A DNA stretch of 48,701 nucleotides from Candidatus Blackburnbacteria bacterium (GCA_016183565.1 JACPEJ010000003.1:1-48701), one strand, 5' to 3'; positions 2,457 to 47,739 are shown, counted from the first letter of the stretch. Numbers and translations: made by a program. Notes: generated from the letters alone by a model not told the origin.

Positions 2457-2760
2457 TTGTCCGCCGAAAAAATTGGCCGTCCAAGCGAGGGCGCGGCGGA
2501 AGGGGGGTGTGGGGGGAATTCCGCCGCGCCCGAGCCGAAGCGAAGCCCCGCCGCCTGTTCTGTTAAGAGCAGAAGCCAGCAAAAAAGTTTTCTTTACCTT
2601 TTAGAAGAAAAAGGGGGTGGCGCGCGAAAATCAAAAATTGAGAAGAAAACTTTTTTGCTGGCTGGCGAGCGTCAGCGAGCGGCGGCGGGGCGGAGCGTCA
2701 GTTTCGCTCAAAATAGGTTCGGATTTGGTAGAATAAACGCACCAAGACAAAACTAGACGG
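2457..2760. repeat. GC-rich nested-palindrome element
   Basis: Abrupt GC spike in AT-rich DNA. Exact 20-bp inverted repeat 2575-2594/2643-2662 and 10-bp inverted repeat 2546-2555/2681-2690. The 20-mer gaattccgccgcgcccgagc (2516-2535) recurs inverted at 41449-41468. The 99-aa ORF here is judged spurious. Confidence 0.55.
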
Positions 2761-2778
2761 CTTTTTGAGAGCCATTTG

Positions 2779-2803
2779 GTGGGCGGCCGCAACGGCCGCC
2801 CAC
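2779..2803 (+). terminator. GC hairpin gtgggcggccgc-a-acggccgcccac, possible terminator
   Basis: Near-perfect 12-bp stem followed by tgatttt. It lies 325 nt downstream of the helicase stop, so the assignment is weak. Confidence 0.35.
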
Positions 2804-3075
2804 TGATTTTGCCCCGATGAATCCTCTTTTCTCTCACTATCGGCGCTTGCGCTGCTGGTGGTTGTTGAGACGGAAGAGGAAATAACCACCTACGAGAACA
2901 ACCGCGATGATAACAATAATTATAACCTAAATGGGCATTTTATACAGGACTTGCATTAGGATATAATGATACGCTAATATCTCTATATGACTGATTTATG
3001 CGAGGCAATGAAAGGGTTCGGCAAAGGCATACAACTCGTTTTCATAATCAATATTAAAATAAATAATTCAAATCT

Positions 3076-3663
3076 ATGGCAAACAACGCAAAATTAAATA
3101 TAAAAGTTATTGTCGGCAGTACTCGCGAAGCCCGTTTTAGCGATAAAGCGGCCGCGTGGATTACCCAGGAAATCAGGAAACAAAAAGAGGTTGGGGCTGA
3201 AATACTGGATCTGCGCGATTACGATATGCCGTTTTATAATGAACCGGTAAGTCCGTCATACAAACAGGAACCGTTCAAAAACGAAGCAGTTTCCCGTTTT
3301 ACCAAGAAAATCGGCGAAGGAGATGCTTTTGTCGTTGTTACCCCGGAATATAATCACGGAACATCGGGCGTACTGAAAAATGCAATGGACTGGGTATATC
3401 CAGAATGGAATAATAAACCGGTTGCCTTTGTGAGCTACGGCAGTGTCGGAGGGGCAAGAGCGGTGGAGCAACTCCGCTTGAACGCCATTGAGCTTCAAAT
3501 GGCGCCAATTCGACAAGCTGTTCATATTCCACAACATTGGACTTTATTAGACGAGAAGGGAAATTTGAAAAAGGGCACGCTCGGATCATTTACTGAAAGC
3601 GCCGAAGCCATGCTGACTCAGCTTATTTGGTGGACGAAAGCATTGAAAAACGCTCGAAAATAA
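3076..3663 (+). CDS. NAD(P)H-dependent FMN reductase family oxidoreductase
   Basis: 195 aa. Flavodoxin-like IKVIVGSTREARFS and VVVTPEYNHGTSGVLKNAMDW motifs typical of the family. Confidence 0.85.
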   Translation: MANNAKLNIKVIVGSTREARFSDKAAAWITQEIRKQKEVGAEILDLRDYDMPFYNEPVSPSYKQEPFKNEAVSRFTKKIGEGDAFVVVTPEYNHGTSGVLKNAMDWVYPEWNNKPVAFVSYGSVGGARAVEQLRLNAIELQMAPIRQAVHIPQHWTLLDEKGNLKKGTLGSFTESAEAMLTQLIWWTKALKNARK

Positions 3664-3734
3664 AAATCCTTGCAAAATTTTCTTCTTCCTTAATTGAAAA
3701 AGAAAGTGGTTGTATAAATACACCTAGAGAAAAG

Positions 3735-4277
3735 TTATCCTAACAGCTCCTTTAACTTAGAAGCTTTATCTATAAGATTCGGAGGGATTCGATCCAGCAT
3801 CACCTGTTTCTCGGCATCATCGAGCGCAAATTCGTCATTCCATAGAGCATCTTCTCTAGAAACAGTTTTTACAATTCCACTACTTAAAACCTGTCTATAT
3901 CCATCAGAAGTTTTATCTAAAATCAGAACATTTAAAAGAGAGATCCTAGCCGCAAAATCTTTAACTGGATCTTCTCCACGCAACAGGCTCCTTACTAAAG
4001 CTCCTGGAACAAAATCAATTGCAAGCTGCCCAATCTCTACCCAGCAATGTTCAGCCATTCCTTGCTCATTAAGTTTTACTGCGATGACGGGCTTTATACC
4101 CGAGCTTTCCAACGCCTTATAAGCTGCAACTGAATATTGCCTACAAGTGGGATTCCTAGAACTCTTCTTGACCCACTGTTTAACGTCAAGAGCAAATTCG
4201 GTCACTTCGGGTGGAAGAAATGCCTTGTCGGAATCATGTGTTATTTGTATTTCTTGTTGGTCACGAAGTTCAGTCAC
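3735..4277 (-). CDS. hypothetical protein
   Basis: 180-aa ORF with no motif I recognise. It fills the gap between flanking genes. Confidence 0.45.
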   Translation of the reverse strand: MTELRDQQEIQITHDSDKAFLPPEVTEFALDVKQWVKKSSRNPTCRQYSVAAYKALESSGIKPVIAVKLNEQGMAEHCWVEIGQLAIDFVPGALVRSLLRGEDPVKDFAARISLLNVLILDKTSDGYRQVLSSGIVKTVSREDALWNDEFALDDAEKQVMLDRIPPNLIDKASKLKELLG

Positions 4278-34448: not shown

Positions 34449-34785
34449 ATTAGTACAATGTTATAACCCGCAAAGCAAGTTGTCAAGCAGGCCCAGAAGT
34501 TGTTACTCATACTTTAAGGCTTGGATTGGGTCGAGTTTGGAGGCTCGGATTGCGGGAGCAACTCCGAAGACTATGTCAACAAACATTTTACCAACAAAAG
34601 CGGAACACCATTAAATCAGCAATTTCCCAACAACTTGTATATGAACTGTCAATTTTGATACTTGAAGTGCGAAACTCGTGTATAGCGGGAAACACTGCAG
34701 GTACAGCGAAAAACTTGGTTATTTGGTTTTGGAGGGTTGAATGAACTTGAGGTAGTCTAGGACAGTGGTTGTGAACTCTAGTCCC

Positions 34786-34930
34786 CCGGCCTCGAGCTAT
34801 TTTCGCATAGAGTTGCCCCTATACTATCGTTACCGCTTGTACGTTTCACTTCCTTGTTCGGAATGGCCCGCTTCGCCGAATCGCTTCAGCGAGGCGAGAT
34901 AAGGGTGGTTCCGTACAGCTCAGGAGACCG
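34786..34930 (-). rRNA. rrf: 5S rRNA with a ~31-nt GC hairpin insertion
   Basis: RNA-sense features: helix I GGUCUCCUGAGC/GCUCGAGGCC, CCGAAC..GAAGUGAAAC, and GAUAGUAUAGGGG..CUAUGCGAAAAUAG. The locus is about 145 nt because of extra sequence at about 34867-34897. Confidence 0.75.
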
Positions 34931-34943
34931 AAAGGCTAGAATG

Positions 34944-35640: not shown

Positions 35641-36452
35641 CATTTAAACCTATCCATTTTCATGGTAGCCTGACTATACCTTCACCCACTGAAACAAAAT
35701 GGGTGTCAACGTATTATGAAATGAGGTTTCTCATTTCATCTGTCCCGATGTAACTCGGGACAAGTCGATACGGGGTCAAGTTAATTAGACGATAGATGAT
35801 AGAAAATAGAAAATAGATCTTTGATGATAGAAAATAGACAATGGATTAATAAGTTTTCCAGTTATTCCTTAGGTTGGTAATTTTTCCACCTAAAGCAATA
35901 TACCTTGTAATTAACCCGTTGCAAACATCCTTATTTATAAAACCTAAATCTCTTGCCATGCTTAAATGAACTTCCATTTCATTGCAAGAGCCTAAGGACT
36001 TATCAAGGTGGACCTTAAATTCTTTTTCAAATCTCCTTTTAGCCCACCCTTCTGCAATATTTGCTGGAGGTGATTTAGAGCATCTTCTCAGTTGAGAACC
36101 TAAATCATTTTTCTCATACATTGGAAGTTTTTGACAAAGTTTGTTGACAATAATTGCCAATTCATAACTTTCTTTGTACACTCCCAAATCTTTGAAGCTC
36201 GTTATCATATCTCCATTATCTATCTTCTATCTTCAAATTACTATCTTCTACCCTCTATCATCTACCGTCCACACTAACCGACTTCCCACGGTATTACCCT
36301 GTGTCATTATTTAACTTTGAACCAAATCCAAAGTCAAGTCTGTTTTTGACCTTAAGGGCTCCACCGTTATGAGTTGATATTTCGTTCAAACCACTGGGTA
36401 GTGTTTGAACAACAGCACTCTGACGTTGCCGTCGGAGGACCCCGATATGTTG
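35641..36452 (-). mobile_element. group I intron in 23S after the E. coli U2500 equivalent
   Basis: The exon reads CUACCU|...|CGAUGUCGGCUC. The 5' exon ends in U and the intron ends in G. Core motifs GAAGGUAUAGUC (35672-35683), GACCCCGUAUCGAC (35764-35777) and GGGUAAUACCGUGGGAAGUCGG (36278-36300). Confidence 0.8.
35846..36208 (-). CDS. four-helix-bundle protein (23S rRNA intervening-sequence protein family, TIGR02436-like)
   Basis: 120 aa. FKDLGVYKESYELA, QLRRCSKSPPANIAEGW and GSCNEMEVHLSMA match the family pattern. It lies wholly inside the intron. Confidence 0.88.
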   Translation of the reverse strand: MITSFKDLGVYKESYELAIIVNKLCQKLPMYEKNDLGSQLRRCSKSPPANIAEGWAKRRFEKEFKVHLDKSLGSCNEMEVHLSMARDLGFINKDVCNGLITRYIALGGKITNLRNNWKTY

Positions 36453-36874
36453 AGGTAGCGAACCGCGCCGTCGATATGGACTCTCGGGCGCGACTACTCT
36501 GTTATCCCCGGGGTAGCTTTTATCCGTTAAGCTCGTAGTCTCCCACGAAACTATCGAGGATCACTAGGACCTGCTTTCGCACCTGCTCGGCCCGTCGGCC
36601 TCACAGTCAAGCCGGCTTATGCCCTTACACTTACAGCACGATTTCCATCCGTGCTAAGCCGACCTTTGTACTCCTGCGTTACCTTTTAGCAGGATACCGC
36701 CCCAGTAAAACTGTCCGTTAAACATTGTCCCCGAACCCGTTTGCAGGGCCCTTAGGTAAGATTTAAATTCACCAAAGAGAGGTGTTTCACTGGCCCCGCC
36801 CAAACTTTCTTGCGAAAGAATGTTGGCGGGTCCCTCCTACGCTAAACAATTGGTAAATCCAAATCAATGTCAAA

Positions 36875-37006: not shown

Positions 37007-37210
37007 CATGTTTGTTCTCGCGCTTTCGCGGAGCATGGACTCTCTCTTCCCCCGACGTTACGTCGGGAGGTCAGCGTTTGGTCTCTACGGGGTCAACCCT
37101 TCGATTAACTCAGGGCGACTTCCCTCGGGATTACCGTGTCCACCTGTTGGCGGATTTAGGCTTCCCCGATATAGCTAACATGGGCAATTCTAGCTGCACA
37201 CTAGAGCTTT
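37007..37210 (-). mobile_element. compact ORF-less group I intron after the U1951 equivalent
   Basis: 204 nt. The 5' exon ends ...GUCGGGU and the intron ends ...AACAUG. Core motifs GGUAAUCCCGAGGGAAGUCG (37116-37137), GACCCCGUAGAGAC (37081-37094) and GAAGAGAGAGUCC (37038-37049). Confidence 0.7.
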
Positions 37211-37218
37211 ACCCGACA
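37211..37218 (-). other. 8-nt 23S micro-exon UGUCGGGU (helix 71 5' strand)
   Basis: Joining UUCCU + UGUCGGGU + AAGUUCCGACC reproduces the universal UUCCUUGUCGGGUAAGUUCCGACC. No other GUCGG partner for the CCGAC strand exists nearby. Confidence 0.65.
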
Positions 37219-38259
37219 CAATCTGTTGCTTTTTCTGACCCCACTTAAAGTAGGGCGTCTTGATATTTCTATCAAGATCTGCATGTCGCCATGCAGTTCA
37301 GACTATATTATCTCCGAATTTACTTCAGAGCTTAGCGTGTAGTCGTTGAGGCTCCGAATAAGTTTCTCCAATCTCTCCCTCATTTTGGACAATCGGGAAG
37401 GATACTGATTCATAAAAATCTTTGCAACCCTAAGAACTTCTTTCTTACTACCAACTTCCCAATGGAATAAACCATCATCGCTGCGCTTATGAATATAACC
37501 GCAACCGAGAAAGCTTTTCGCCAACTCGATAATCTTGCGATCTTTCATTGCTACAGCAAAGAACGGTTGTTGGTATAAACCAGATTTCTTTAGGCCACAT
37601 GAACCTTCGGCATCCATGATCCCAGATAAGAAAAAGCCAGTTGCATCGCTATTGTGGCGATTTACCGAGCCTTCTATCTCAAAACCATAGAGTTTAAGAT
37701 TCTTAAGACCCTTACGACATTTTTCTATTACTTCAATCTTGTCTTGAACTTTTGAGTACTTACCGATTGACGGTAAGACTTTTCCTAAAAATTCAAGCTT
37801 CTTGATTGCTATATCTCCCGCAAGAACCGGATAATCTCGAAAAAAGTTGAGAACAAATTCAACTTTTCTTCTACCTCTAAACTTGAGGTTATATCCTCCC
37901 TTAATTGGGCTGATGATTCCTTGTTCTGAAGCAATTACCCGATTAACTTCTTCCAGAAGAAATCGGTCTGCGTTGGAAACAGTTAAATCAGGAGTAAAGT
38001 AAAAACCTTTTCCTTTTTTATGAGTAGCCCGAATTATCGAACAACTCAATTCTCCAACACAAAAACCTGTGTAATAGAACTTACTAAACTCATTCGTTGC
38101 CTGCTGATTATCTGCACTTGAAGCATTGTCAGTTGAAGATGTTGGCATTAATTCCAGTATTAACCGAAATTAACCCAAAGTCAACAACTAGCTCAAGATA
38201 CTCAGACGTTCCAGCATATAGCCAAGTTTTCCCAACATATGGTTGTTGGGTCCCCTTAG
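37219..38259 (-). mobile_element. ORF-bearing intron after the U1943 equivalent (probable group I, class unassigned)
   Basis: The 5' exon ends in U, the intron ends in G (..CAGAUUG), and a GGGGA guide can pair with UUCCU. It lacks the core motifs shared by the other four introns. About 190 nt is non-coding. Confidence 0.6.
37303..38148 (-). CDS. double-motif LAGLIDADG homing endonuclease
   Basis: 281 aa. Motifs YTGFCVGELSCS and FFLSGIMDAEGSCG. Confidence 0.85.
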   Translation of the reverse strand: MPTSSTDNASSADNQQATNEFSKFYYTGFCVGELSCSIIRATHKKGKGFYFTPDLTVSNADRFLLEEVNRVIASEQGIISPIKGGYNLKFRGRRKVEFVLNFFRDYPVLAGDIAIKKLEFLGKVLPSIGKYSKVQDKIEVIEKCRKGLKNLKLYGFEIEGSVNRHNSDATGFFLSGIMDAEGSCGLKKSGLYQQPFFAVAMKDRKIIELAKSFLGCGYIHKRSDDGLFHWEVGSKKEVLRVAKIFMNQYPSRLSKMRERLEKLIRSLNDYTLSSEVNSEII

Positions 38260-38464
38260 AGGAACTTCGCTACCGTAGAACAGTTATAGTTACTGCTGCC
38301 GTTTACCGGAGCTTCATTTCTCAGCAACCGAGGCTTGCGCCCCGCCACCGATCCACTTGACTTACCGGCACTGGGCAGGCGTCAGCCCCTATACTTTGCT
38401 TTTCAGCTTTGCAGGGACCTGTGTTTTTGATAAACAGTCGGTTGGCAATCTTTAGCTGCGGCCC

Positions 38465-38580
38465 ACTCGCGCACAGCGCAAAAATTTCTAATTTGAAATT
38501 TAAAATTTGAAATGAATTTTTATTGAGATTTCATTAAAAATTGAAAATTAAAAATTAAAAATTCTTGTGCTATGCACAAG
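38465..38580 (-). repeat. hairpin-bounded rRNA mini-insertion, copy E6 (AT-rich core type B)
   Basis: The low-coordinate hairpin is degenerate (actcgcgcacagcgc). The other is cttgtgc-tat-gcacaag at 38564-38580. The core aatttctaatttgaaatttaaaatttgaaatg... is nearly identical to copy E5. Confidence 0.75.
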
Positions 38581-39134
38581 CGGGCAGGACATCTTGAAAA
38601 ACTTACGTCCAGCTTTTTTGCCGAATTCCTTAAACCTCTTTCTCTCGCTCGCCTTAGTCTTCTCGACCAGCCCACCTGTGTCGGATATCGGTACGGCTTG
38701 CCTTGTGTCTTGCTGCGAACCTTTTCTTGTAAGTTGAAAGCGCTTAGATTGCATCCCTTGCGGAACGCTTTGTATCACTGCTTGGTTAAACATCCTAACG
38801 GATTTTCCAATCAGAACTACTTAACAGCTTACACCCACCATGTTCATGGGTGGGCCTAAGACTTCCAACTCAGTCAGTCCCCAGCTATAACGACTCAAAA
38901 CAAGTAGACGAATATTAACGTCTTGTCCATCCCCTACTCCCCCGATTAAATCGGGGGGCTTAGGTTAGGCACCGACTAACCCGTCGACGACGAACGTAGC
39001 GACGGAAACCTTGGGCATACGGCGGTCCGAATTTTCATCGGACTGTACGTTACTCATACCGGCATTCTCACTACTGTACGCTCCACCCTACCTTCCAGTA
39101 GAGCTTCAATGCATACAGCACGCTCCCCTACCAT

Positions 39135-39286
39135 ACTCGCCCTCCGGGCGAGTCAGCTATAAAGCTATTGAGCTATTAGGCTATAAAAGATTTTCTTCGA
39201 AAATCTCTTCAACTTTCGTATAAAGTAAAAAGCTTCATAGCTTCATTGCGTCATTGCTTCATCGCTAACTTGTCCGAAGGACAAGT
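39135..39286 (-). repeat. hairpin-bounded rRNA mini-insertion, copy E2 (core type A, helix 45 equivalent)
   Basis: actcgccc-tcc-gggcgagt at 39135-39153 and acttgtcc-gaa-ggacaagt at 39268-39286. Confidence 0.8.
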
Positions 39287-39341: not shown

Positions 39342-39463
39342 ACTCGCCCTCCGGGCGAGTCAGCTATAAAGCTATTGAGCTATTAGGCTATAAAAGATTT
39401 TCTTCGAAAATCTCTTCAACTTTCGTATAAAGTAAAAAGCTTCATAGCTTCATTGCGTCATTG
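39342..39463 (-). repeat. truncated copy E3, 122 nt identical to E2
   Basis: 39342-39463 equals 39135-39256 base for base by my reading. It lacks the last 30 nt, including the acttgtcc hairpin. Confidence 0.8.
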
Positions 39464-39497
<34 letters not shown>

Positions 39498-40014
39498 GTG
39501 TCTTTGGACGGCAACTTCCTTTGCAACTTAGCCAAGATCTTAGAGGCCTTAACTGAGAGTCTGGGTTGTTTCCCTTTCGTCACACCAGCTTAGCCCGGCA
39601 TGACTGTTTCCCTTAATTTTCCACAGTTGTATTCGGAGTTTGGTTGAGATATCTTAAGTTACCTCTTGATACCCCATCCAGTGCTCTACCCCAACTGAGT
39701 TTTTTTAAAAGACGGTCCCTATAGACCTTTCGGGGAGAACCAGCTATCTCCAGGTTCGTTTGGCATTTTACCGCTAACCACAAGTCATCCGAGCACATTG
39801 CAACGTACACCGGTTCGGGCCTCCTCGCGGCATTTCTGCCGGATTCACCCTGCTCATAGTTAGATCACCTGGTTTCGGGTCTGCCCCCACGCGCATTTCC
39901 GCCGATTGGCGGATCGGGCTATTCACCCTCGCTTTCACTATGCCTTCACCACGGAGTGGCTTAGACTGCGCATGACGACAACTCGCCGGTTCATTCTTCA
40001 ATAGGCACGGTATC

Positions 40015-40129
40015 ACTCGCCCTCCGGGCGAGTCAGCTATAAAGCTATTAAGCTGTTAGGCTATGAAGTAAAAGGCTTCATAGCTCCATTGCATCATTGC
40101 TTCATCGCTAACTTGTCCGAAGGACAAGC
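40015..40129 (-). repeat. hairpin-bounded rRNA mini-insertion, copy E4 (core type A, helix 25 equivalent)
   Basis: actcgccc-tcc-gggcgagt at 40015-40033 and acttgtcc-gaa-ggacaagc at 40111-40129. Confidence 0.8.
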
Positions 40130-40413
40130 TTTACCGGTTTGTTCGCAAACAGTTTCAGGTTCTATTTCACTGGGCGTCCCGCCCATCTTTTCACCTTTCC
40201 CTCGCGGTACTAGTTCACTATCGGTCACAAGTTGTATTTAGCCTTACCCAGTGGTCTGGGTAGATTCCCACAAGATTTCTCGTGTCCCGTGGTACTCAGG
40301 AACATCCTAGAGTCCCGTTAGATTTTGTATACAAGACTTTCACTTTCTTTGGTCGACAATTCCATGTCATTCTACTATCTAACGAAATCCCACATTGGAG
40401 TCCTACAACCCCC

Positions 40414-40529
40414 ACTCGCGCGCTGCGCGAGAATTTCTAATTTGAAATTTAAAATTTGAAATGAATTTTTATTGAGATTTCATTAAAAATTGAAAATTAA
40501 AAATTTAAAATTCTTGTGCAACGCACAAG
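40414..40529 (-). repeat. hairpin-bounded rRNA mini-insertion, copy E5 (AT-rich core type B)
   Basis: actcgcgc-gct-gcgcgag at 40414-40431 and cttgtgc-aac-gcacaag at 40513-40529. Confidence 0.8.
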
Positions 40530-40573
40530 CAGGTTTGGGCTTTTCCGCTTTCGCTCGCCGCTACTAACGGAAT

Positions 40574-41142: not shown

Positions 41143-41318
41143 GTAAAAACTGAAAAAGCTGGCAAGAGCCAGCTTTCTTATGAGAAGTTGTACAAATCAA
41201 CGGACTATACTTTGAGGCAGTATGTCCCTGACGGGATGTTTGAAAAGAGTCGGGAACTTCTCATTAATTATGCTGCTTCTTGCGCTTTAGTGTATTTTAA
41301 TCTCAATTGAGCTTGCTG

Positions 41319-42023
41319 TCAATGGGAAAGATGAATTCTCCATTTCTGTGGAATTATACAACTCTGCTCGAACATTTTTTGAACGGAACTGACCGCCTCC
41401 GCTTCCCGCCTGCGCCGAGGCTTCGGCGGGCAGGCGCTCCGGCGGAACGCTCGGGCGCGGCGGAATTCTGCTTCTAAAATAACTGGCAATTCTTTCACTC
41501 CATCACTTCCGCTAAAGTGTCCTTTAGCGTGTTCAATCGCCGTTTTCGCGCCAAGCCGTTCCTCAAAAAGTTTTTTGTTTTCTTGCGGCACAACCTCATC
41601 GTCATCGGAAAATACCGCAAAAAACTTTTTGGTATGTTGCTTCACTTTAGCAAACTCAATCGGCGTTTCCAACCACGACTTGGCAATTTCTTTTTCCTCA
41701 TCGGTTTTCAAGTTCATTAAAGTGAACCAACCGGCGACAAAAGTCGCACCTCCAACTTTTTTGTCGGCGGGCAGACTTTCCAAAAAACGGAGAATGGTTT
41801 GGCAACCGATACTGTGTCCGACAAAGTAAGTATTCTTATCAACATCGCCGACAATTTTGGAAAAGTGCGAAACCCACGCTTCAATTTTCGGCTCCTCCGA
41901 TTCCGGCATAGCCGGAACATGAACTTGAAAACCATTTTTCTCAAGCTCTGTTTTTAGCCACGGAAACCAGCCCTCATCAGGGTAGCCGTCCCAGCCGTGA
42001 ATTATGAAAGCTCGTTTAGTCAT
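41319..42023 (-). CDS. alpha/beta hydrolase (YdeN/RBBP9-like serine hydrolase) with an aberrant C-terminal extension
   Basis: The ATG at 42023 gives MTKRAFIIHGWDGYP. Nucleophile elbow GHSIG. The last ~45 codons (EFRRARAFRRSACPPKPRRRRE...) are read through a GC-rich palindromic element. Confidence 0.75.
   Translation of the reverse strand: MTKRAFIIHGWDGYPDEGWFPWLKTELEKNGFQVHVPAMPESEEPKIEAWVSHFSKIVGDVDKNTYFVGHSIGCQTILRFLESLPADKKVGGATFVAGWFTLMNLKTDEEKEIAKSWLETPIEFAKVKQHTKKFFAVFSDDDEVVPQENKKLFEERLGAKTAIEHAKGHFSGSDGVKELPVILEAEFRRARAFRRSACPPKPRRRREAEAVSSVQKMFEQSCIIPQKWRIHLSH
41385..41475. repeat. GC-rich palindromic element inside the hydrolase 3' end
   Basis: gcctgc[gccga-ggct-tcggc]gg-gcaggc hairpin. 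The 20-mer at 41449-41468 is the exact inverted copy of 2516-2535. Confidence 0.6.
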
Positions 42024-42027
42024 AAAG

Positions 42028-42360
42028 TTATGGTTCGTCCACATATTCGAGAAAAAGTTTTCTCTCGAAACCACCTCGTTCTATTTTCTTTTTCTCTTTT
42101 TGTTTTTCAACCTCAACAATCGTCGTGTTGTTGTTTAGTGCGATTGACTCCAACAACTGAAGAACATCTGATAACTCATTCAAAATTTCCTCGTCAGTTT
42201 TTGCTTCCAGTAATTCTTTTGCTTCCTCAACCAGCTTTTCTTTTAAGGCAATTTTGAATTGATCGTCATTCAATTCTGAAACTTTTGGGACAGCATTATT
42301 CTTTTTGATAATCTCTGGAATTCTATCCCTTATTAGCTTGTTATAAGTTTTCCGGTTCAT
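42028..42360 (-). CDS. MazG-like nucleoside triphosphate pyrophosphohydrolase
   Basis: 110 aa. YNKLIRDRIPEII and the KLVEEAKELLEA/ELSDVLQLLE helices are typical of small MazG-type enzymes. Confidence 0.7.
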   Translation of the reverse strand: MNRKTYNKLIRDRIPEIIKKNNAVPKVSELNDDQFKIALKEKLVEEAKELLEAKTDEEILNELSDVLQLLESIALNNNTTIVEVEKQKEKKKIERGGFERKLFLEYVDEP

Positions 42361-42540
42361 GTTATTTCAAAACTTGGTAATGAAGTTGAATTTCGTTATC
42401 AGTATCAGTTATTTTCTTTTGACCCAAAAGTTTCAACGCTTCTTTTGGCGAGTGAGCAATTAGGTGATTTGGTCCCAAAGTTTGATATTGGTGGACTCTC
42501 TACGAACAAATTCGGACTGATTTCAAAATACGAACGTCGT

Positions 42541-42610
42541 AGCTCCGGCCCCGCTTCGCGTGGCCTCCGCTTTTTTGCGCGCGCGATTTTTTGCTCGGCT
42601 GAGGCCGAGC
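42541..42610. repeat. GC-rich element
   Basis: A GC spike between AT-rich genes containing the hairpin ttgctcggc-tga-ggccgagcaa. The 85-aa ORF across it is judged spurious. Confidence 0.45.
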
Positions 42611-42618
42611 AATAAACA

Positions 42619-43365
42619 TCAAATTCTTGAATTCTTAAGTGTCGATAAGATTGTCTCAACAAGAATATTATTTTGTTCTGTTGAGGAATTAATTATATAA
42701 AAATAATCCTTTTGATTTGGAAAAACATAATCCTTGGGATCAATAGCAAGAAAATAATATTTATGAGTCCCAAGACCTCTTGATTTGTATGTAAACCCTG
42801 AGTAACTACCTATAGAAATTGGTTTTGTTGTTTCTAGCACATCTCCAACTTCTTTTGAATTTGCAACTTCCTTTTCAACAACCTGCTCCAAAGTTTGAGT
42901 TGTGGGATACTGGACTCTTTTTATTCTAAACTCAAGTCCTTCTATTTCTTTAATTTTATATTTATCAAGATTTGATTCATCAAACATTATAAAATGTGCA
43001 TAGTTATCACTCGTTTCACCATATGTAATATTTTTAGGGTGTTTTACTGTAAAACCGTCAGCTCGTGATCCTGATTCGATCCAGTCACTTGTATCAATTA
43101 GGTTTTGTTCTTGAGAAAGCGGGGTGGTAGATGGTATTGTAGATGGCAGAACTGTATCATTATTCAATGGCTTTTGTCCGGAAAGATTACTGTTCTGCTT
43201 TCCTAAGAAATAACCACCAACGCCAAAAACTAGTGAGCAAAGAACGGAAACTACAATAATTGCAGTAAGATTAGTTTTTGGCTTATCTGGAACAGTTGGT
43301 TGAGCAACTGGATTTTGGCCGACTGGTTGGGTATTTTGATTACCCACATTAATTTTATTTTCCAT
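42619..43365 (-). CDS. membrane-anchored hypothetical protein
   Basis: ATG at 43365 follows a GGAGA RBS. One TM segment (LTAIIVVSVLCSLVFGVGGYFLG) followed by an ectodomain. Confidence 0.55.
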   Translation of the reverse strand: MENKINVGNQNTQPVGQNPVAQPTVPDKPKTNLTAIIVVSVLCSLVFGVGGYFLGKQNSNLSGQKPLNNDTVLPSTIPSTTPLSQEQNLIDTSDWIESGSRADGFTVKHPKNITYGETSDNYAHFIMFDESNLDKYKIKEIEGLEFRIKRVQYPTTQTLEQVVEKEVANSKEVGDVLETTKPISIGSYSGFTYKSRGLGTHKYYFLAIDPKDYVFPNQKDYFYIINSSTEQNNILVETILSTLKNSRI

Positions 43366-43420
43366 ATTTATCTCCAAGAAAAAGTATATCATTTTCTTTT
43401 AAAAGTTGGTATATTGGAAT

Positions 43421-43504
43421 TGTAACCAACTTAATCGATTGCTTTTTTTGATGGCCGCATTGGACAGCTTGAGCAATCGAGTTGGTTACAACCAGTGCGG
43501 CCAT
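43421..43504 (+). ncRNA. interleaved inverted repeats (two mutually exclusive helices)
   Basis: A 43421-43442 pairs with A' 43473-43490 (18 bp plus a 4-nt bulge). B 43451-43463 pairs with B' 43492-43504 (13 bp, including one G-U valid only on the + strand). The order is A-B-A'-B'. Confidence 0.4.
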
Positions 43505-43594
43505 TTAAGTTTTTAGAACATTAATAATTTTTGCATTTTTCTTTTCCGCCAAGGGCGGTGTCCGAGCCGACTTTTTCGGAGGCCGAAGGCCATC

Positions 43595-43623
43595 TTGACA
43601 ATGTCTTATAATTGAGTCATAAT
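43595..43623 (+). promoter_or_regulatory. sigma70-like promoter of the phd-relE pair
   Basis: TTGACA (43595-43600), 17-nt spacer, CATAAT (43618-43623). The ATG at 43632 is only 8 nt downstream of the -10 element. Confidence 0.45.
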
Positions 43624-43631
43624 TATGATGT

Positions 43632-43910
43632 ATGAATCTACCCATTATTCCAACCATCAAATCGGTAACTGATCTTAGATATCAAACCGCAGATATTATA
43701 AAGCTTTTAGAGCAAAACCAGCCCGTAGTAGTGACAAGAGATAATGACACTATCGCAGTTATACTTTCTCCCACCCAATATCAACAAATTATTCACCTTT
43801 TTGAAGAACTAGAAGAAGAAAAAGCAGTACAAAGATTGGAGAAGGCAATTAAAAAAGGAGGAAAGTTTATTGATTTTGACTTATTTGACAACAAACAACG
43901 TAAAAAGTAA
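43632..43910 (+). CDS. Phd/YefM family antitoxin
   Basis: 92 aa. SVTDLRYQTADIIKLLEQNQPVVVTRDNDTIAVILS is the typical Phd/YefM N-terminus. Confidence 0.8.
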   Translation: MNLPIIPTIKSVTDLRYQTADIIKLLEQNQPVVVTRDNDTIAVILSPTQYQQIIHLFEELEEEKAVQRLEKAIKKGGKFIDFDLFDNKQRKK

Positions 43911-43922
43911 AAGGTTGCCTAA

Positions 43923-44183
43923 ATGTACAAGATCTTCATCGAAAAGAAGGCGGCAAAATTTCTCTCCAAGTTAGACTCAAAAACTTACCGAATAGTCTCA
44001 AATGCCATCAAGAAACTCTCCCACTTTCATGAAACAAAAAATTTAGACATAAAACCTCTTAAGGGAAAATTTGAAAATATGCTAAGACTTAGAGTTGGAT
44101 CAAGAAGGGTTCTTTTCACCGTTAATGAACTGAAAAAAGAAATTAAGATTTGGATTATAGAAAACCGAGGAGATATTTATTGA
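43923..44183 (+). CDS. RelE/ParE family toxin
   Basis: 86 aa. KKAAKFLSKLD and LRLRVGSRRVLFTV..I.IWIIENRGDIY patterns. Confidence 0.8.
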   Translation: MYKIFIEKKAAKFLSKLDSKTYRIVSNAIKKLSHFHETKNLDIKPLKGKFENMLRLRVGSRRVLFTVNELKKEIKIWIIENRGDIY

Positions 44184-44230
44184 AAAATGTGGCGAGCGCC
44201 ATTCCCGACTCGCAGAATTCTCCATTTCTG

Positions 44231-44700: not shown

Positions 44701-44784
44701 CGTATATACTCCTTAGAAAGGAGGTGATCCATCCGCACCTTCCAGTACGGATACCTTGTTACGACTTAGTCCTCATCGCTGAGT

Positions 44785-45348
44785 TCACCTTAGGACCCAC
44801 TTAATTGCGGGTACTTCGGGTGCCCCCAACTTTGCTGGCTTGACGGATTGCACTTTACTTGAGGTTGTAGTGCGTTCCCACCCGACGAGCGGATTTCCCG
44901 CACCGGGCGAGCCGAAATGTTTTTGAAGCTCGTTATGAAGTGTATTCATTGTGAGCTTTAACTGCCAAACTTTATTTAATTCCTCTTTTGTAAGCTTGCG
45001 TATATCTTGCCGACCACGAACGATCTGAGCAACACGAGCAAACCTTTCAAAAGATTCCCTTTTGACACCTTGTAAGTGGTGTTTTTGGAAAAATGGAACT
45101 ATTGAGCCGTAGATCTCGGCTTGTCGAGTTACCTCATAAACGAAGGTTGTTTTGTGCTTGTCGTTGCCTTGAAATTTTCTATATACATAACCAACTTTAA
45201 AAAATTCAAAAACTTTATCTAAAAGTTCCTTATTATCAAAGCGTTGCGTAATAAAATATCTTAAGACGATTCGACAATCTGGCCTTATTTGAACCAGAAA
45301 ACATCCCTCGCCATCAGTTAACCCAACAATATAGTCTGCAGTTAGCAT
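44785..45348 (-). CDS. single-motif LAGLIDADG homing endonuclease
   Basis: 187 aa. DYIVGLTDGEGCF motif. The last ~20 codons run past the insertion boundary (44846) into the helix 44 exon. Confidence 0.8.
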   Translation of the reverse strand: MLTADYIVGLTDGEGCFLVQIRPDCRIVLRYFITQRFDNKELLDKVFEFFKVGYVYRKFQGNDKHKTTFVYEVTRQAEIYGSIVPFFQKHHLQGVKRESFERFARVAQIVRGRQDIRKLTKEELNKVWQLKLTMNTLHNELQKHFGSPGAGNPLVGWERTTTSSKVQSVKPAKLGAPEVPAIKWVLR

Positions 45349-45735
45349 TCCGTAGATTCCTTCGGTATTGATTCGGGTATATATCCAGCTTATGTGAATA
45401 TCTACCTTCTGTCAATACCTACTATGAATCTGCTGACTTCCTGTAAGGTAATTACCTCCACCCTAACAGGATCTCCGTGGGTCATTATATTCTCTCTTCT
45501 AAACATGAATGACGGATTTTCTTTAGCTGACTTCCTTCCGACCGCCCGGCGAAAGTCGCCAATCCTCTTTTGTGTCATCCCTGTTCTTTGTCTCAGGCCC
45601 TCCAACCAAATTAGTTACCCAATCTGGTCTGCCATTTTTGACTACGTTTGCACAGACGTTATGCAAAGGTAGGACTTCAACCTACTAGAGGATATAACTG
45701 CCACGCGCGTTCTAGTACTCAAGCTGAATACTATA
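44846..45735 (-). mobile_element. unclassified 890-nt insertion in the 16S decoding centre (between C1403/C1404 equivalents)
   Basis: Flanks read ACACCGCC | ... | CGUCAAGCC. With the 1-nt C ambiguity, neither possible boundary gives an exon-U/intron-G pair. The shared group I core motifs are not seen. Confidence 0.65.
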
Positions 45736-46067: not shown

Positions 46068-46870
46068 CACGTTTATTTAACTATTACTAGTAGCGTGGAC
46101 TATACCTTCACCCCGACGTTACGTCGGGGGCCAACCGTATGAATGGTACTTTAAAAGTTTCCATTCTCACCCCGCCCTTATGCGGGGATCAGTCTCTACG
46201 GGGCAAAAGTTTGACCGAATATTTTTGCAGCTCAGGTAAAACTTCATCCCAAAATTTTCTTTTAAGATAAAGAACCCAAGTGCCTGCAGAATCGTAGTGA
46301 TACAAGCTAACATTTGTTTTTCCAAACAAACTCACATCTCTTATCGCATCGTCTTGATTTCCGTAGGCTATACGTACTCTCAAACGTGCTCCTTTATCAA
46401 CAGAACCATCTCCATCTATCCTGCCAGCCAAATAAGCTGGTAGAAATTTATCAGGAACAGTAAAGTTTTTCTCCTTAAAAGGTAGAAGAAACCTTACAAA
46501 CGCTCTGTTGTTAACGTAAAGATGATATGCTACTTGTTTTCTTTTTCTCCCAACTGGCTTATAAAGCCTGTATTTTATAATACAGTTTGGCAGGTGTCTT
46601 TTAAGAAAAGACTCGAACCTTCTTATAAGTCGCATATCGGTAGAAGAAAGACCAATAGAACTTGACCACCAATAACCATCTGCAAGCCAAAGACCTAAAA
46701 TATAGAAATCTTCAGCAGTTTTCGGCCACACTTTGCTTCCCACGGTATTACCCTTTGATATTTCATCTTAACCCGAAGGTTAACCGAAAATCAAGTGGGG
46801 CTTCACCGTTTTGGGTTGGTTATTTTTGTCCGACGTTACCATCGGACCGGCCATCATCCCTTGCGGGACT
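46068..46870 (-). mobile_element. group I intron in 16S after the U1060 equivalent
   Basis: Exons read GCAUGGCU | ... | GUCGUCAGCUCGUG. P1 is UGGCU/GGCCG and P10 is GAUGAU/GUCGUC. Core motifs GAAGGUAUAGUCC (46098-46109), GCCCCGUAGAGAC (46192-46204) and GGGUAAUACCGUGGGAAG (46737-46755). The intron ends in G. Confidence 0.8.
46189..46743 (-). CDS. compact double-motif LAGLIDADG homing endonuclease
   Basis: 184 aa with a GTG start. Motifs ILGLWLADGYW and YLAGRIDGDGSV. Both ORF ends overlap conserved intron core motifs. Confidence 0.75.
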   Translation of the reverse strand: MGSKVWPKTAEDFYILGLWLADGYWWSSSIGLSSTDMRLIRRFESFLKRHLPNCIIKYRLYKPVGRKRKQVAYHLYVNNRAFVRFLLPFKEKNFTVPDKFLPAYLAGRIDGDGSVDKGARLRVRIAYGNQDDAIRDVSLFGKTNVSLYHYDSAGTWVLYLKRKFWDEVLPELQKYSVKLLPRRD

Positions 46871-47275: not shown

Positions 47276-47739
47276 CAAGTTTGTTGCACAAACTTAAATT
47301 CAAAATTTAAAGTTCAAAATGCAAAATTACATTTTAAAATTAAAGGTTGAAAAAGTTTCGGCTAAGACATTTCTGCTCAGCTCTCCATGTTGCCATGGAG
47401 GTCGGACTATATCTTCATCCCGAGCTAAGCTCGGGAGCCGACGTGTAGTCTCTACGGGGTCAAGTTACTATTGAGGCTAGACAGTAGAAACTAGATGTTA
47501 GAACTTGATGCTAGATGTTTGAGCCTAGTAGGTGCTTTACAAACTTCTAAATCACGAAACGTCTTTTATCATCAAGCATCGACCTTCTAACTTCAAGGTC
47601 GAACTTCTAATTTCCATCGTCTAACCTCAACATAACCGACTTCCCTCGGTATTACCCTTCGACTTTGTTCAGGGCTTCACCGATACAGTTGGATTTTCTC
47701 ACGTAGTGTTACCACTACGGGGGACTAGAGACAAGCTCC
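47276..47739 (-). mobile_element. ORF-less group I intron in 16S after the U788 equivalent
   Basis: Exons read GCGAAAGGGAU | ... | UAGAGACCCCUGUAGUCC. P1 is GGGAU/GUCCC and P10 is GUCUCUA/UAGAGAC. Core motifs GAAGAUAUAGUCC (47404-47416), GACCCCGUAGAGAC (47448-47461) and GGGUAAUACCGAGGGAAGUCGG (47636-47659). Confidence 0.82.

Follow-up and report, generated by a model that had tools for sequence, protein, structure and literature searches.

We describe a nested insertion in the rRNA operon of a Candidatus Blackburnbacteria bacterium (GCA_016183565.1 JACPEJ010000003.1:1-48701), a stretch of 48,701 nt that was analyzed as a whole and is called the window here. Between positions 35641 and 36452 on the minus strand, 812 nt interrupt the 23S rRNA gene; the insertion is a predicted group I intron lying after U2500, and its peripheral stem P6 holds an intact gene for a small four-helix-bundle protein of the intervening sequence (IVS) family. 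This gene and the two complementary arrays of 7-nt repeats (arms) flanking it form a cassette, a discrete DNA unit that is not specific to introns and is also found between ordinary genes. Landing sites of the cassette are of several kinds, introns among them, and its protein probably does not serve the intron. We lean towards reading the cassette as a classical IVS-type selfish element nested in P6 of a group I intron; RNase III probably releases it, and its protein would serve the cassette itself.

The alignment of the 23S rRNA to that of Escherichia coli is interrupted by exactly 812 nt, between window positions 36453 and 35640. The 5' exon ends in ...GCUACCU (U2500) and the 3' exon resumes at C2501 (CGAUGUCGG); across the 3' junction, intron ...AAAUG is followed by C(2501)GAUGUCGG. 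Both ends agree with the group I splice-site rule, the 5' exon ending in U and the intron in G (35641, the omega G). A guide sequence near the intron start pairs with the exon end, giving a P1 of ACCU/GGGU with U.G at the splice site, followed by C1-G10. Positions in 23S rRNA were recalibrated on landmarks and corrected for small deletions in the E. coli ruler copy (locus L001, 3133-6026; 2894 nt), which lags standard numbering by 4-10 positions toward the 3' end. Sites are named below by subunit (S, 16S; L, 23S) and the number of the U preceding them, while L with three digits is our handle for a locus. Apart from the cassette, the parts of the L2500 intron are as follows.

35641..36452, minus strand: group I intron, 812 nt, first base C (36452) and last base G (35641), from junction, RF00028 and core covariation
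36439..36443, minus strand: internal guide sequence GGGGU (P1), pairing with exon end ACCU, U.G at the splice site
36384..36433, minus strand: putative P2 and P2.1 hairpins (GACG-GCAA-CGUC; GUUCAAAC..GUUUGAAC), assigned by fold and position
36373..36377, minus strand: P3 5' strand UCAAC, 4/5 P3 pairs compensatory in the family
36285..36366, minus strand: P4 (CGGU/ACCG) around the P5 domain (GCCCU..AGGGU)
36270..36287, minus strand: P6 5' strand GGG and P6a 5' strand GUCGGUUAGUGUG
35773..35787, minus strand: P6a 3' strand UAAUUAACUUGAC and P6 3' strand CCC
35763..35766, minus strand: P7 5' strand GACU, invariant in the family
35714..35761, minus strand: two extra hairpins between P7 and P3', seen in the fold and tentatively named P7.1/P7.2-like
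35706..35710, minus strand: P3 3' strand GUUGA
35683..35705, minus strand: P8 hairpin CACCCA..UGGGUG, from RF00028, 5/5 pairs compensatory
35672..35682, minus strand: J8/7 and P7 3' strand AAGGUAUAGUC, a group I hallmark
35641..35668, minus strand: P9 hairpin (CUACCAU GAAA AUGGAUAG) and 3' tail to the terminal G

The pair of hairpins between P7 and P3' resembles P7.1/P7.2 of subgroup IA. Against the Rfam group I model (RF00028), the L2500 intron scored 29.8 bits (E 1.6e-5; gathering score 50), with only its 3' half aligned: P8, the J8/7-P7 strand UGAAGGUAUAGUC and P9. The 5' half is missing from this alignment because the 480-nt cassette splits the core. At the gathering threshold, Rfam does not call the intron, and its large-subunit rRNA model wrongly absorbs it. 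Compared with shuffles, the fold of the whole insert has a z of -12, with the open reading frame (ORF) in the loop of a long stem.

Because the RF00028 match was partial, we collected relatives through a protein scan with one genome per species, which yielded 79 loci (not independent samples). Eleven of these lie in rRNA genes, within 750-850-nt insertions that are homologous to the L2500 insert well beyond the ORF. Junction reads place them after U788, ~U1083 and U1498 of 16S rRNA and after U2449, U2593, U2596 and U2656 of 23S rRNA, and a metagenome contig adds a 23S site at ~U2512; the intron family thus occupies about ten rRNA sites, with a guide sequence fitting each. U is always the last base of the 5' exon, and G the last base of the insert wherever the 3' junction is readable. 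Every relative has, a few bases into the intron, a guide complementary to its own exon (AGAACGU/GCGUUCU at L2593, GUCGU/GCGAC at S1498 and L2596, ACCU/GGGU at L2500), and U.G occupies the splice site in 14/15 relatives at other sites, the exception (L008) having U-A.

Covariation was assessed in a hand-registered, fixed-register core alignment of 13 members from S788, S1083, S1498, L2449, L2500, L2593, L2596 and L2656. Standard pairs filled 97.9% of the cells for the proposed pairs of P3, P4, P6/P6a, P7 and P8, compared with 83.9% in shuffles (0/500 reached the observed value) and 27-44% when the partner was slid by 1-3 columns. Both sides change in 16/30 pairs (4/5 in P3, 5/5 in P8, 7/11 in P6/P6a); two-sided changes are absent from P4, and P7 does not vary. 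Pairing in P3 is long-range: its strands lie on either side of the ORF and are anchored by invariant neighbors. An alignment of loosely cut core segments with MAFFT misplaced P8 and a 1-nt indel in J3/4 and was rejected in favor of the fixed-register segments.

These data bear on another view, in which the whole 812 nt would be a plain RNase III-type IVS that is cut out to leave the 23S rRNA fragmented at the peptidyl-transferase center. Inverted repeats around an S23p-type ORF, as in the IVSs of Leptospira and Coxiella (PMC4990558), would fit such an origin, as would an RF00028 score below the gathering score. However, the inverted repeat covers the inner 480 nt only, and the outer 330 nt form a covarying P1-P9 that follows the U/G rule and has a guide matched to its site. 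Moreover, the insertion lies not at the tip of a helix (9, 25 or 45) but between ACCU and CGAUG, within a conserved strand of the peptidyl-transferase region. The plain IVS view is contradicted by these analyses, and we consider it extremely improbable.

The cassette is made up of two arms and one ORF.

36212..36269, minus strand: 5' arm, 8-9 purine-rich 7-nt units (GACGGUA GAUGAUA GAGGGUA GAAGAUA ...)
35846..36208, minus strand (same strand as the rRNA): four-helix-bundle gene, 120 aa (PF05635/TIGR02436)
35788..35845, minus strand: 3' arm, pyrimidine-rich 7-nt units complementary to the 5' arm

The arms are 58 nt long and 81% complementary (higher if G.U is counted); the 5' arm stops 3 nt 5' of the ATG, and the 3' arm begins immediately past the stop codon. 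They prolong the P6 stem, so that the intact 363-nt gene sits in the loop of a peripheral stem. The duplex amounts to ~70 bp, and the insert as a whole to ~480 nt. The same arms, with termini GACGRTAGA...TCTAYCGTC, flank the ORF at rRNA and non-rRNA loci. Complementarity of the flanks gave z < -3 against composition-matched shuffles in 53/79 loci, and in 74/79 purines are more frequent in the upstream arm than in the downstream one. In all 56 close loci, and in 12 of the 23 distant ones, the autocorrelation of the arms has its maximum at 7 (or 14) nt; within the ORF it is flat. These distant homologues (39-53% identical) come from metagenome-assembled genomes (MAGs) labeled Planctomycetes, Omnitrophota, Bacteroidales, Deltaproteobacteria and others, and most of them have purine-rich repeats upstream and complementary pyrimidine-rich repeats downstream. 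A heptad consensus, GNNAGRR, is only moderately enriched (~5-6x background), and we therefore rely on the periodicity and the purine/pyrimidine asymmetry. On the sense strand of intronic arms, G.U pairs outnumber A.C (96 versus 59, p 0.004), as would suit an RNA stem.

Sigma-70-type scans found no convincing promoter upstream of the intronic ORF. One free-standing copy (L083, 4965-4994) has a promoter-like TTGACG-18-TATGTT whose second hexamer is preceded by TG; this site ends 7 nt 5' of the ATG, would yield a leaderless mRNA and is noted as a lead only.

The encoded protein belongs to the IVS-protein family, scoring 85.4 bits against PF05635 (E 3.7e-24; cut-off 33.8) and 89 bits against TIGR02436 (E 2.1e-25; cut-off 24). 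Its predicted structure (monomer model, pLDDT 93.9) is a four-helix bundle close to Xcc0516 (2GSC; TM-score 0.88-0.92) and BT_0352 (2RLD; 0.76-0.83 normalized to the query, 0.80-0.88 to the target), and by analogy with 2GSC the protein is probably a pentameric ring. R42, S46, N50 and E53, invariant in 30 homologues, make up the RxxxSxxxNxxE helix-face motif reported earlier for the family (PMC3936711). The ratio of nonsynonymous to synonymous divergence (dN/dS) is 0.05-0.15 in measurable pairs, including 0.077 for an intronic pair (L036/L039), at saturated synonymous sites (pS 0.65-0.88; pN 0.11-0.21); the protein is thus under strong purifying selection and in use. In Pfam it matches PF05635 only, with no LAGLIDADG, GIY-YIG, HNH or His-Cys box domain; PADLOC and PHROGs searches returned no match, and the contig index held no record of the exact protein. 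To our knowledge, the S23p/IVS protein has lacked an assigned function since 1993. The preliminary description of this DNA had assigned the ORF to this family, the 812 nt to a group I intron at U2500 and the ORF to the loop of a long peripheral stem. The first assignment is borne out by scores above both curated cut-offs, the second by the U/G junction, guide, covariation and 3'-half RF00028 alignment, and the third by arms that extend P6 (35788-35845/36212-36269).

The window has three sets of the family's core motifs, one in the L2500 intron and two in the 16S rRNA gene.

47276..47739, minus strand: S788 sibling intron (16S, after U788), same core, decayed cassette in P6 with arms at ~47631-47470
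46068..46870, minus strand: U1060 sibling intron (16S, after U1060), same core motifs, LAGLIDADG_3 ORF (46743..46189) in the P6 slot

The ORF-less S788 intron aligned to the full RF00028 model (46.3 bits, E 1.2e-10), and Rfam's own alignment puts its 176-nt hairpin (~47631-47470) in the P6 loop, an independent check that matches our P6 assignment of the cassette. In alignment with L035, a relative that occupies the same site and whose ORF is intact, the hairpin has homologous arms. Its loop retains ATGATAAAAGACGTTTCGTGATTTAGAAG (47572-47540), which reads 'MIK', a frameshift and 'TFRDLEV', after which ~320 nt of the ORF are gone. This hairpin is therefore a decayed cargo site rather than an empty one, in keeping with one half of the earlier suggestion of an empty or decayed cargo site at the equivalent place. 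In the U1060 intron, the LAGLIDADG_3 ORF lies between the P4'-P6 and P6'-P7 motifs and runs from P6 into P7 and P7.1, which fits the preliminary wording that the L2500 intron carries its protein "instead of a homing endonuclease". Across the family, P6 contains either the cassette, intact or decayed, or a LAGLIDADG gene or a short loop.

The sibling series and the distribution of homologues also bear on a possible maturase, a protein that would bind intron RNA and aid folding or splicing, both of its own L2500 intron (in cis) and of the ORF-less S788 sibling (in trans). Such a role would suit a basic protein (pI 9.3) that is strongly conserved inside introns and whose gene occupies the slot usual for intron proteins; furthermore, only one intact four-helix-bundle gene was seen in the window, beside two family introns that have none. 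Nevertheless, most close homologues lie outside introns and rRNA genes, the protein tree mixes free with intronic copies, family introns without a cassette exist, and the partner conserved across phyla is the heptad hairpin, not the intron core. The S788 sibling, too, keeps a conserved core despite its decayed ORF. A maturase is thus unlikely.

That the cassette is separable from introns is evident from where it occurs. No rRNA lies within 3 kb of most close homologues (60-82% identical), and nearly all of these homologues keep the same arms. The two free copies that we inspected lie in short intergenic gaps, one after polA and the other between a pilin gene and a large gene. Among 80 related genomes, the polA site is filled in four and empty in at least 14, where polA and its convergent neighbor abut with overlapping stop codons. 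The filled site of L090 reads GTTT[GACGATAG...CGTCTAGTC]AAACC, the element being GACG...GTC, and the empty site of L159 reads GTTTAAACC; set against GTTT[GACG...GTC]AAAC of L090, the empty junction of L159 is GTTTAAAC. When present, the element ends provide TGA stops for both flanking genes. The four-helix bundle is the only ORF in the cassette, which encodes no transposase, and a single empty-site case does not define the mechanism of movement.

The cassette has also been copied between two introns. In one 23S gene (L026), the L2596 intron (2541-3362) and the L2656 intron (3427-4232) share a block of ~99-100% identity that runs from P4' through the cassette to P7. Their ORFs are identical over 363/363 nt, the rest of the two introns is ~40-50% identical, and both boundaries of the block fall in conserved segments, P4' and P7. 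This pattern looks like recent copying between introns, with recombination in the conserved flanks of the core. The window cassette has its nearest relative (91% over 508 nt) in an intron at ~L2512, in a gene whose L2500 site holds an ORF-less sibling with a short P6, and contigs from metagenomes holding the host genome include the intron core with ~20 nt in place of the cassette. In the protein tree, where intronic and free copies interleave, the window copy groups with the polA-site copies.

The distribution of cassettes also allows us to weigh a helper in retromobility, whereby an Avd-like protein together with a reverse transcriptase would fix reverse-spliced introns or cassette copies at new sites. 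PF05635 has been considered homologous to Avd (PMC10053308), and many intron sites share only a short guide match (e.g., GUCGU followed by AA at S1498 and L2596), as expected for reverse splicing. However, the likeness of our model to Avd of diversity-generating retroelements is weak (4DWL; TM-score 0.64-0.71, E 1.4), and no reverse transcriptase was found in the L2500 intron or within 5 kb of the two free copies inspected. The cassette copying in L026, moreover, resembles recombination. Retromobility therefore seems highly unlikely.

The maturase-like or mobility role proposed in the preliminary description is accordingly not supported, the arms-plus-ORF unit being mostly outside introns. The link that it drew between the protein family and intron biology stands in one sense, in that introns do carry the cassette, and fails in another, since they do so as a landing place. 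The survey that it suggested, of whether homologues are intron-embedded, gave 11/79 loci in rRNA genes, and the majority of close homologues have no rRNA nearby.

A different possibility is that the gene serves the host as a domesticated small regulator, for instance of rRNA processing or ribosome quality; the rRNA operon would supply a strong promoter, and the hairpin would work as a switch for expression. Purifying selection is consistent with this, expression would be tied to rRNA synthesis, and family members also occur within cas loci (PMC3936711, PMC10910872). Presence and absence are nonetheless patchy among close relatives, some genomes have several copies, and the gene has decayed both in the S788 sibling and in Coxiella (PMC4990558). 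We regard a host-serving role as improbable.

The reading that we prefer, a selfish IVS-type cassette nested in P6, could work as follows. Splicing would remove the cassette with the intron from the rRNA, and excision would thereby restore the peptidyl-transferase strand. By prolonging P6, the arms would hold the ends of the 480-nt insert together, so that the ribozyme core can fold. The start region of the mRNA would otherwise be buried at the top of the stem, and RNase III may cut the ~70-bp duplex as in classical IVSs, freeing or unmasking the mRNA. Release by RNase III is the most economical model because the duplex far exceeds the 28-bp stem of the Coxiella IVS that RNase III cuts (PMC4990558) and because CPR genomes (those of the Candidate Phyla Radiation) retain rnc (PMC12641178). 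The protein may bind the heptad repeats and act in maintenance, copying or expression control of the cassette; a role for the cassette itself is favored because the constant partner of the protein is the heptad hairpin rather than the intron.

Several observations count against this reading. The RF00028 score of the L2500 intron falls short of the gathering score, the hand registration of the covariation alignment favors pairing, and public RNA runs sharing words with the window gave conserved exon matches only and zero intron matches. No target-site duplication is present at the polA junctions, and we know of no enzyme for cassette movement. A preference for terminator hairpins between convergent genes was considered as a targeting rule and rejected, all four orientations of neighboring genes being about equally common. 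In arms of free copies, the sense strand has no wobble bias (G.U 256, A.C 263), and the arms may therefore act at the DNA level instead of as an RNA stem. Lastly, the single intact gene may act in trans on both family introns of the genome.

The host is a CPR bacterium of the Microgenomates group. Its rRNAs are only 62-80% identical to those of E. coli, the closest relatives of the 120-aa ORF are from MAGs of Daviesbacteria, Levybacteria and Woesebacteria, and the window DNA was detected in groundwater metagenomes. The rRNA operon takes up the right third of the window on the minus strand.

48701 to ~44718, minus strand: 16S rRNA
44302-44230, minus-strand operon: tRNA-Ile
41142-41069, minus-strand operon: tRNA-Ala
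~40860 to ~35029, minus strand: 23S rRNA
34932-34784, minus-strand operon: 5S rRNA

Several further features of this operon were observed. The 5S match (34784-34932) is 149 nt long against a 120-position model, implying an insertion of ~29 nt. Two protein genes, 43392..42619 (no Pfam match) and 42074..41319 (a serine hydrolase), lie in the interval between tRNA-Ile and tRNA-Ala (41143-44229), and a J8/7-like motif occurs at 41213, immediately 5' of tRNA-Ala. Near the 16S 3' end (E. coli 1403-1492), an insertion of ~970 nt (44768-45735) contains a LAGLIDADG_1 ORF (45348..44785); group II-like introns have been reported between these positions in CPR 16S rRNA (PMC11270868). A 23S insertion of ~1250 nt near E. 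coli 1937-1946 (37007-38259) encodes a 281-aa LAGLIDADG_1 protein (38148..37303) and has weak RF00028 matches at 37017-37261 (44.1 bits) and 37279-37444 (25.4 bits), maybe representing two adjacent introns.

The 23S rRNA gene also contains two kinds of repeated hairpin. Two AT-rich hairpins of ~123 nt (38462-38584 and 40411-40533, minus strand), 93% identical, are placed at separate points, between E. coli 277-327 and 1671-1765; they resemble a repeated ORF-less hairpin element and give spurious plant-miRNA matches in Rfam. A second element is present in three copies (39135-39256, 39342-39463 and 40014-40128) with arms of AGCUAUN-type short repeats, the arm segments of two copies being 100% identical and those of the third 94%. 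All three fall within the helix 25 and helix 42-45 regions, close to the sites known from classical RNase III-type IVSs.

The operon is an informative setting for the IVS protein, as three sibling introns hold a homing endonuclease, an intact IVS cassette and a decayed one in the same P6 slot. The function of the protein becomes testable through heptad binding, RNase III release of the mRNA and cassette movement. For the annotation of CPR rRNA, such insertions matter because they break rRNA models and assemblies. More speculatively, PF05635 genes with inverted 7-nt repeat arrays could make up a widespread, undescribed class of very small mobile elements, for which rRNA IVSs and intron copies are tolerated landing sites and the ring-forming protein is a factor for the element's own spread or maintenance that recognizes the heptad arms. 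We put this forward tentatively and think it rather doubtful.

The co-occurrence of IVS proteins with CPR rRNA insertions is not new. Tsurumaki et al. 2024 (PMC11270868) listed 22 23S_rRNA_IVP ORFs in CPR rRNA insertions, five of them in insertions matching the Rfam group I model, and stated agreement with Brown et al. 2015. Those insertions represent the same phenomenon in the same lineage as the window. The hairpin, the P6 position, the relationship to a LAGLIDADG sibling and free-standing copies were not found in the text and supplement of that study. In a literature search that covered few subscription journals, we likewise came across no account of the P6 placement, the sibling series, heptad arms as a family trait or filled and empty sites.

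Among elements outside rRNA, the cassette resembles palindromic elements of the miniature inverted-repeat transposable element (MITE) kind in being a discrete insertion with conserved termini, filled and empty sites and ORF-less derivatives. Unlike these, it has a conserved non-transposase gene, shows no target-site duplication and has arms that are arrays of 7-nt units instead of a unique terminal repeat. We know of no Avd genes described in heptad-repeat hairpins. Avd (4DWL) is likewise a small basic four-helix bundle with pentameric relatives and falls in the same CDD superfamily (PMC10053308), but the structural likeness is weak, the L2500 intron has neither a reverse transcriptase nor a template/variable repeat context, and no reverse transcriptase lies within 5 kb of the two inspected free copies.

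With ORF-bearing group I introns, such as that of phage T4 td (ORF in P6a) and CPR introns with I-ShaI-type LAGLIDADG genes, the L2500 intron shares the ribozyme architecture and a cargo whose place in a peripheral loop does not disrupt the core. Its cargo differs in having no nuclease family signature, in bringing its own long stem and in existing apart from introns. Another parallel is with the classical S23p/IVP IVSs of Leptospira and Coxiella burnetii (helix 45; PMC4990558), in which a PF05635 ORF also sits in the loop of a stem of terminal inverted repeats, inside an rRNA gene, with an RNase III-type duplex, and which are regarded as selfish and horizontally moving. Unlike those, the cassette described here occupies P6 of a group I intron rather than the tip of an rRNA helix, and the rRNA would therefore be religated. 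Its stem is ~70 bp of 7-nt repeats, compared with 28 bp in the Coxiella IVS, and the ORF in the L2500 intron is under strong purifying selection, in contrast to that of Coxiella, which decays and seems not to be translated (PMC4990558).

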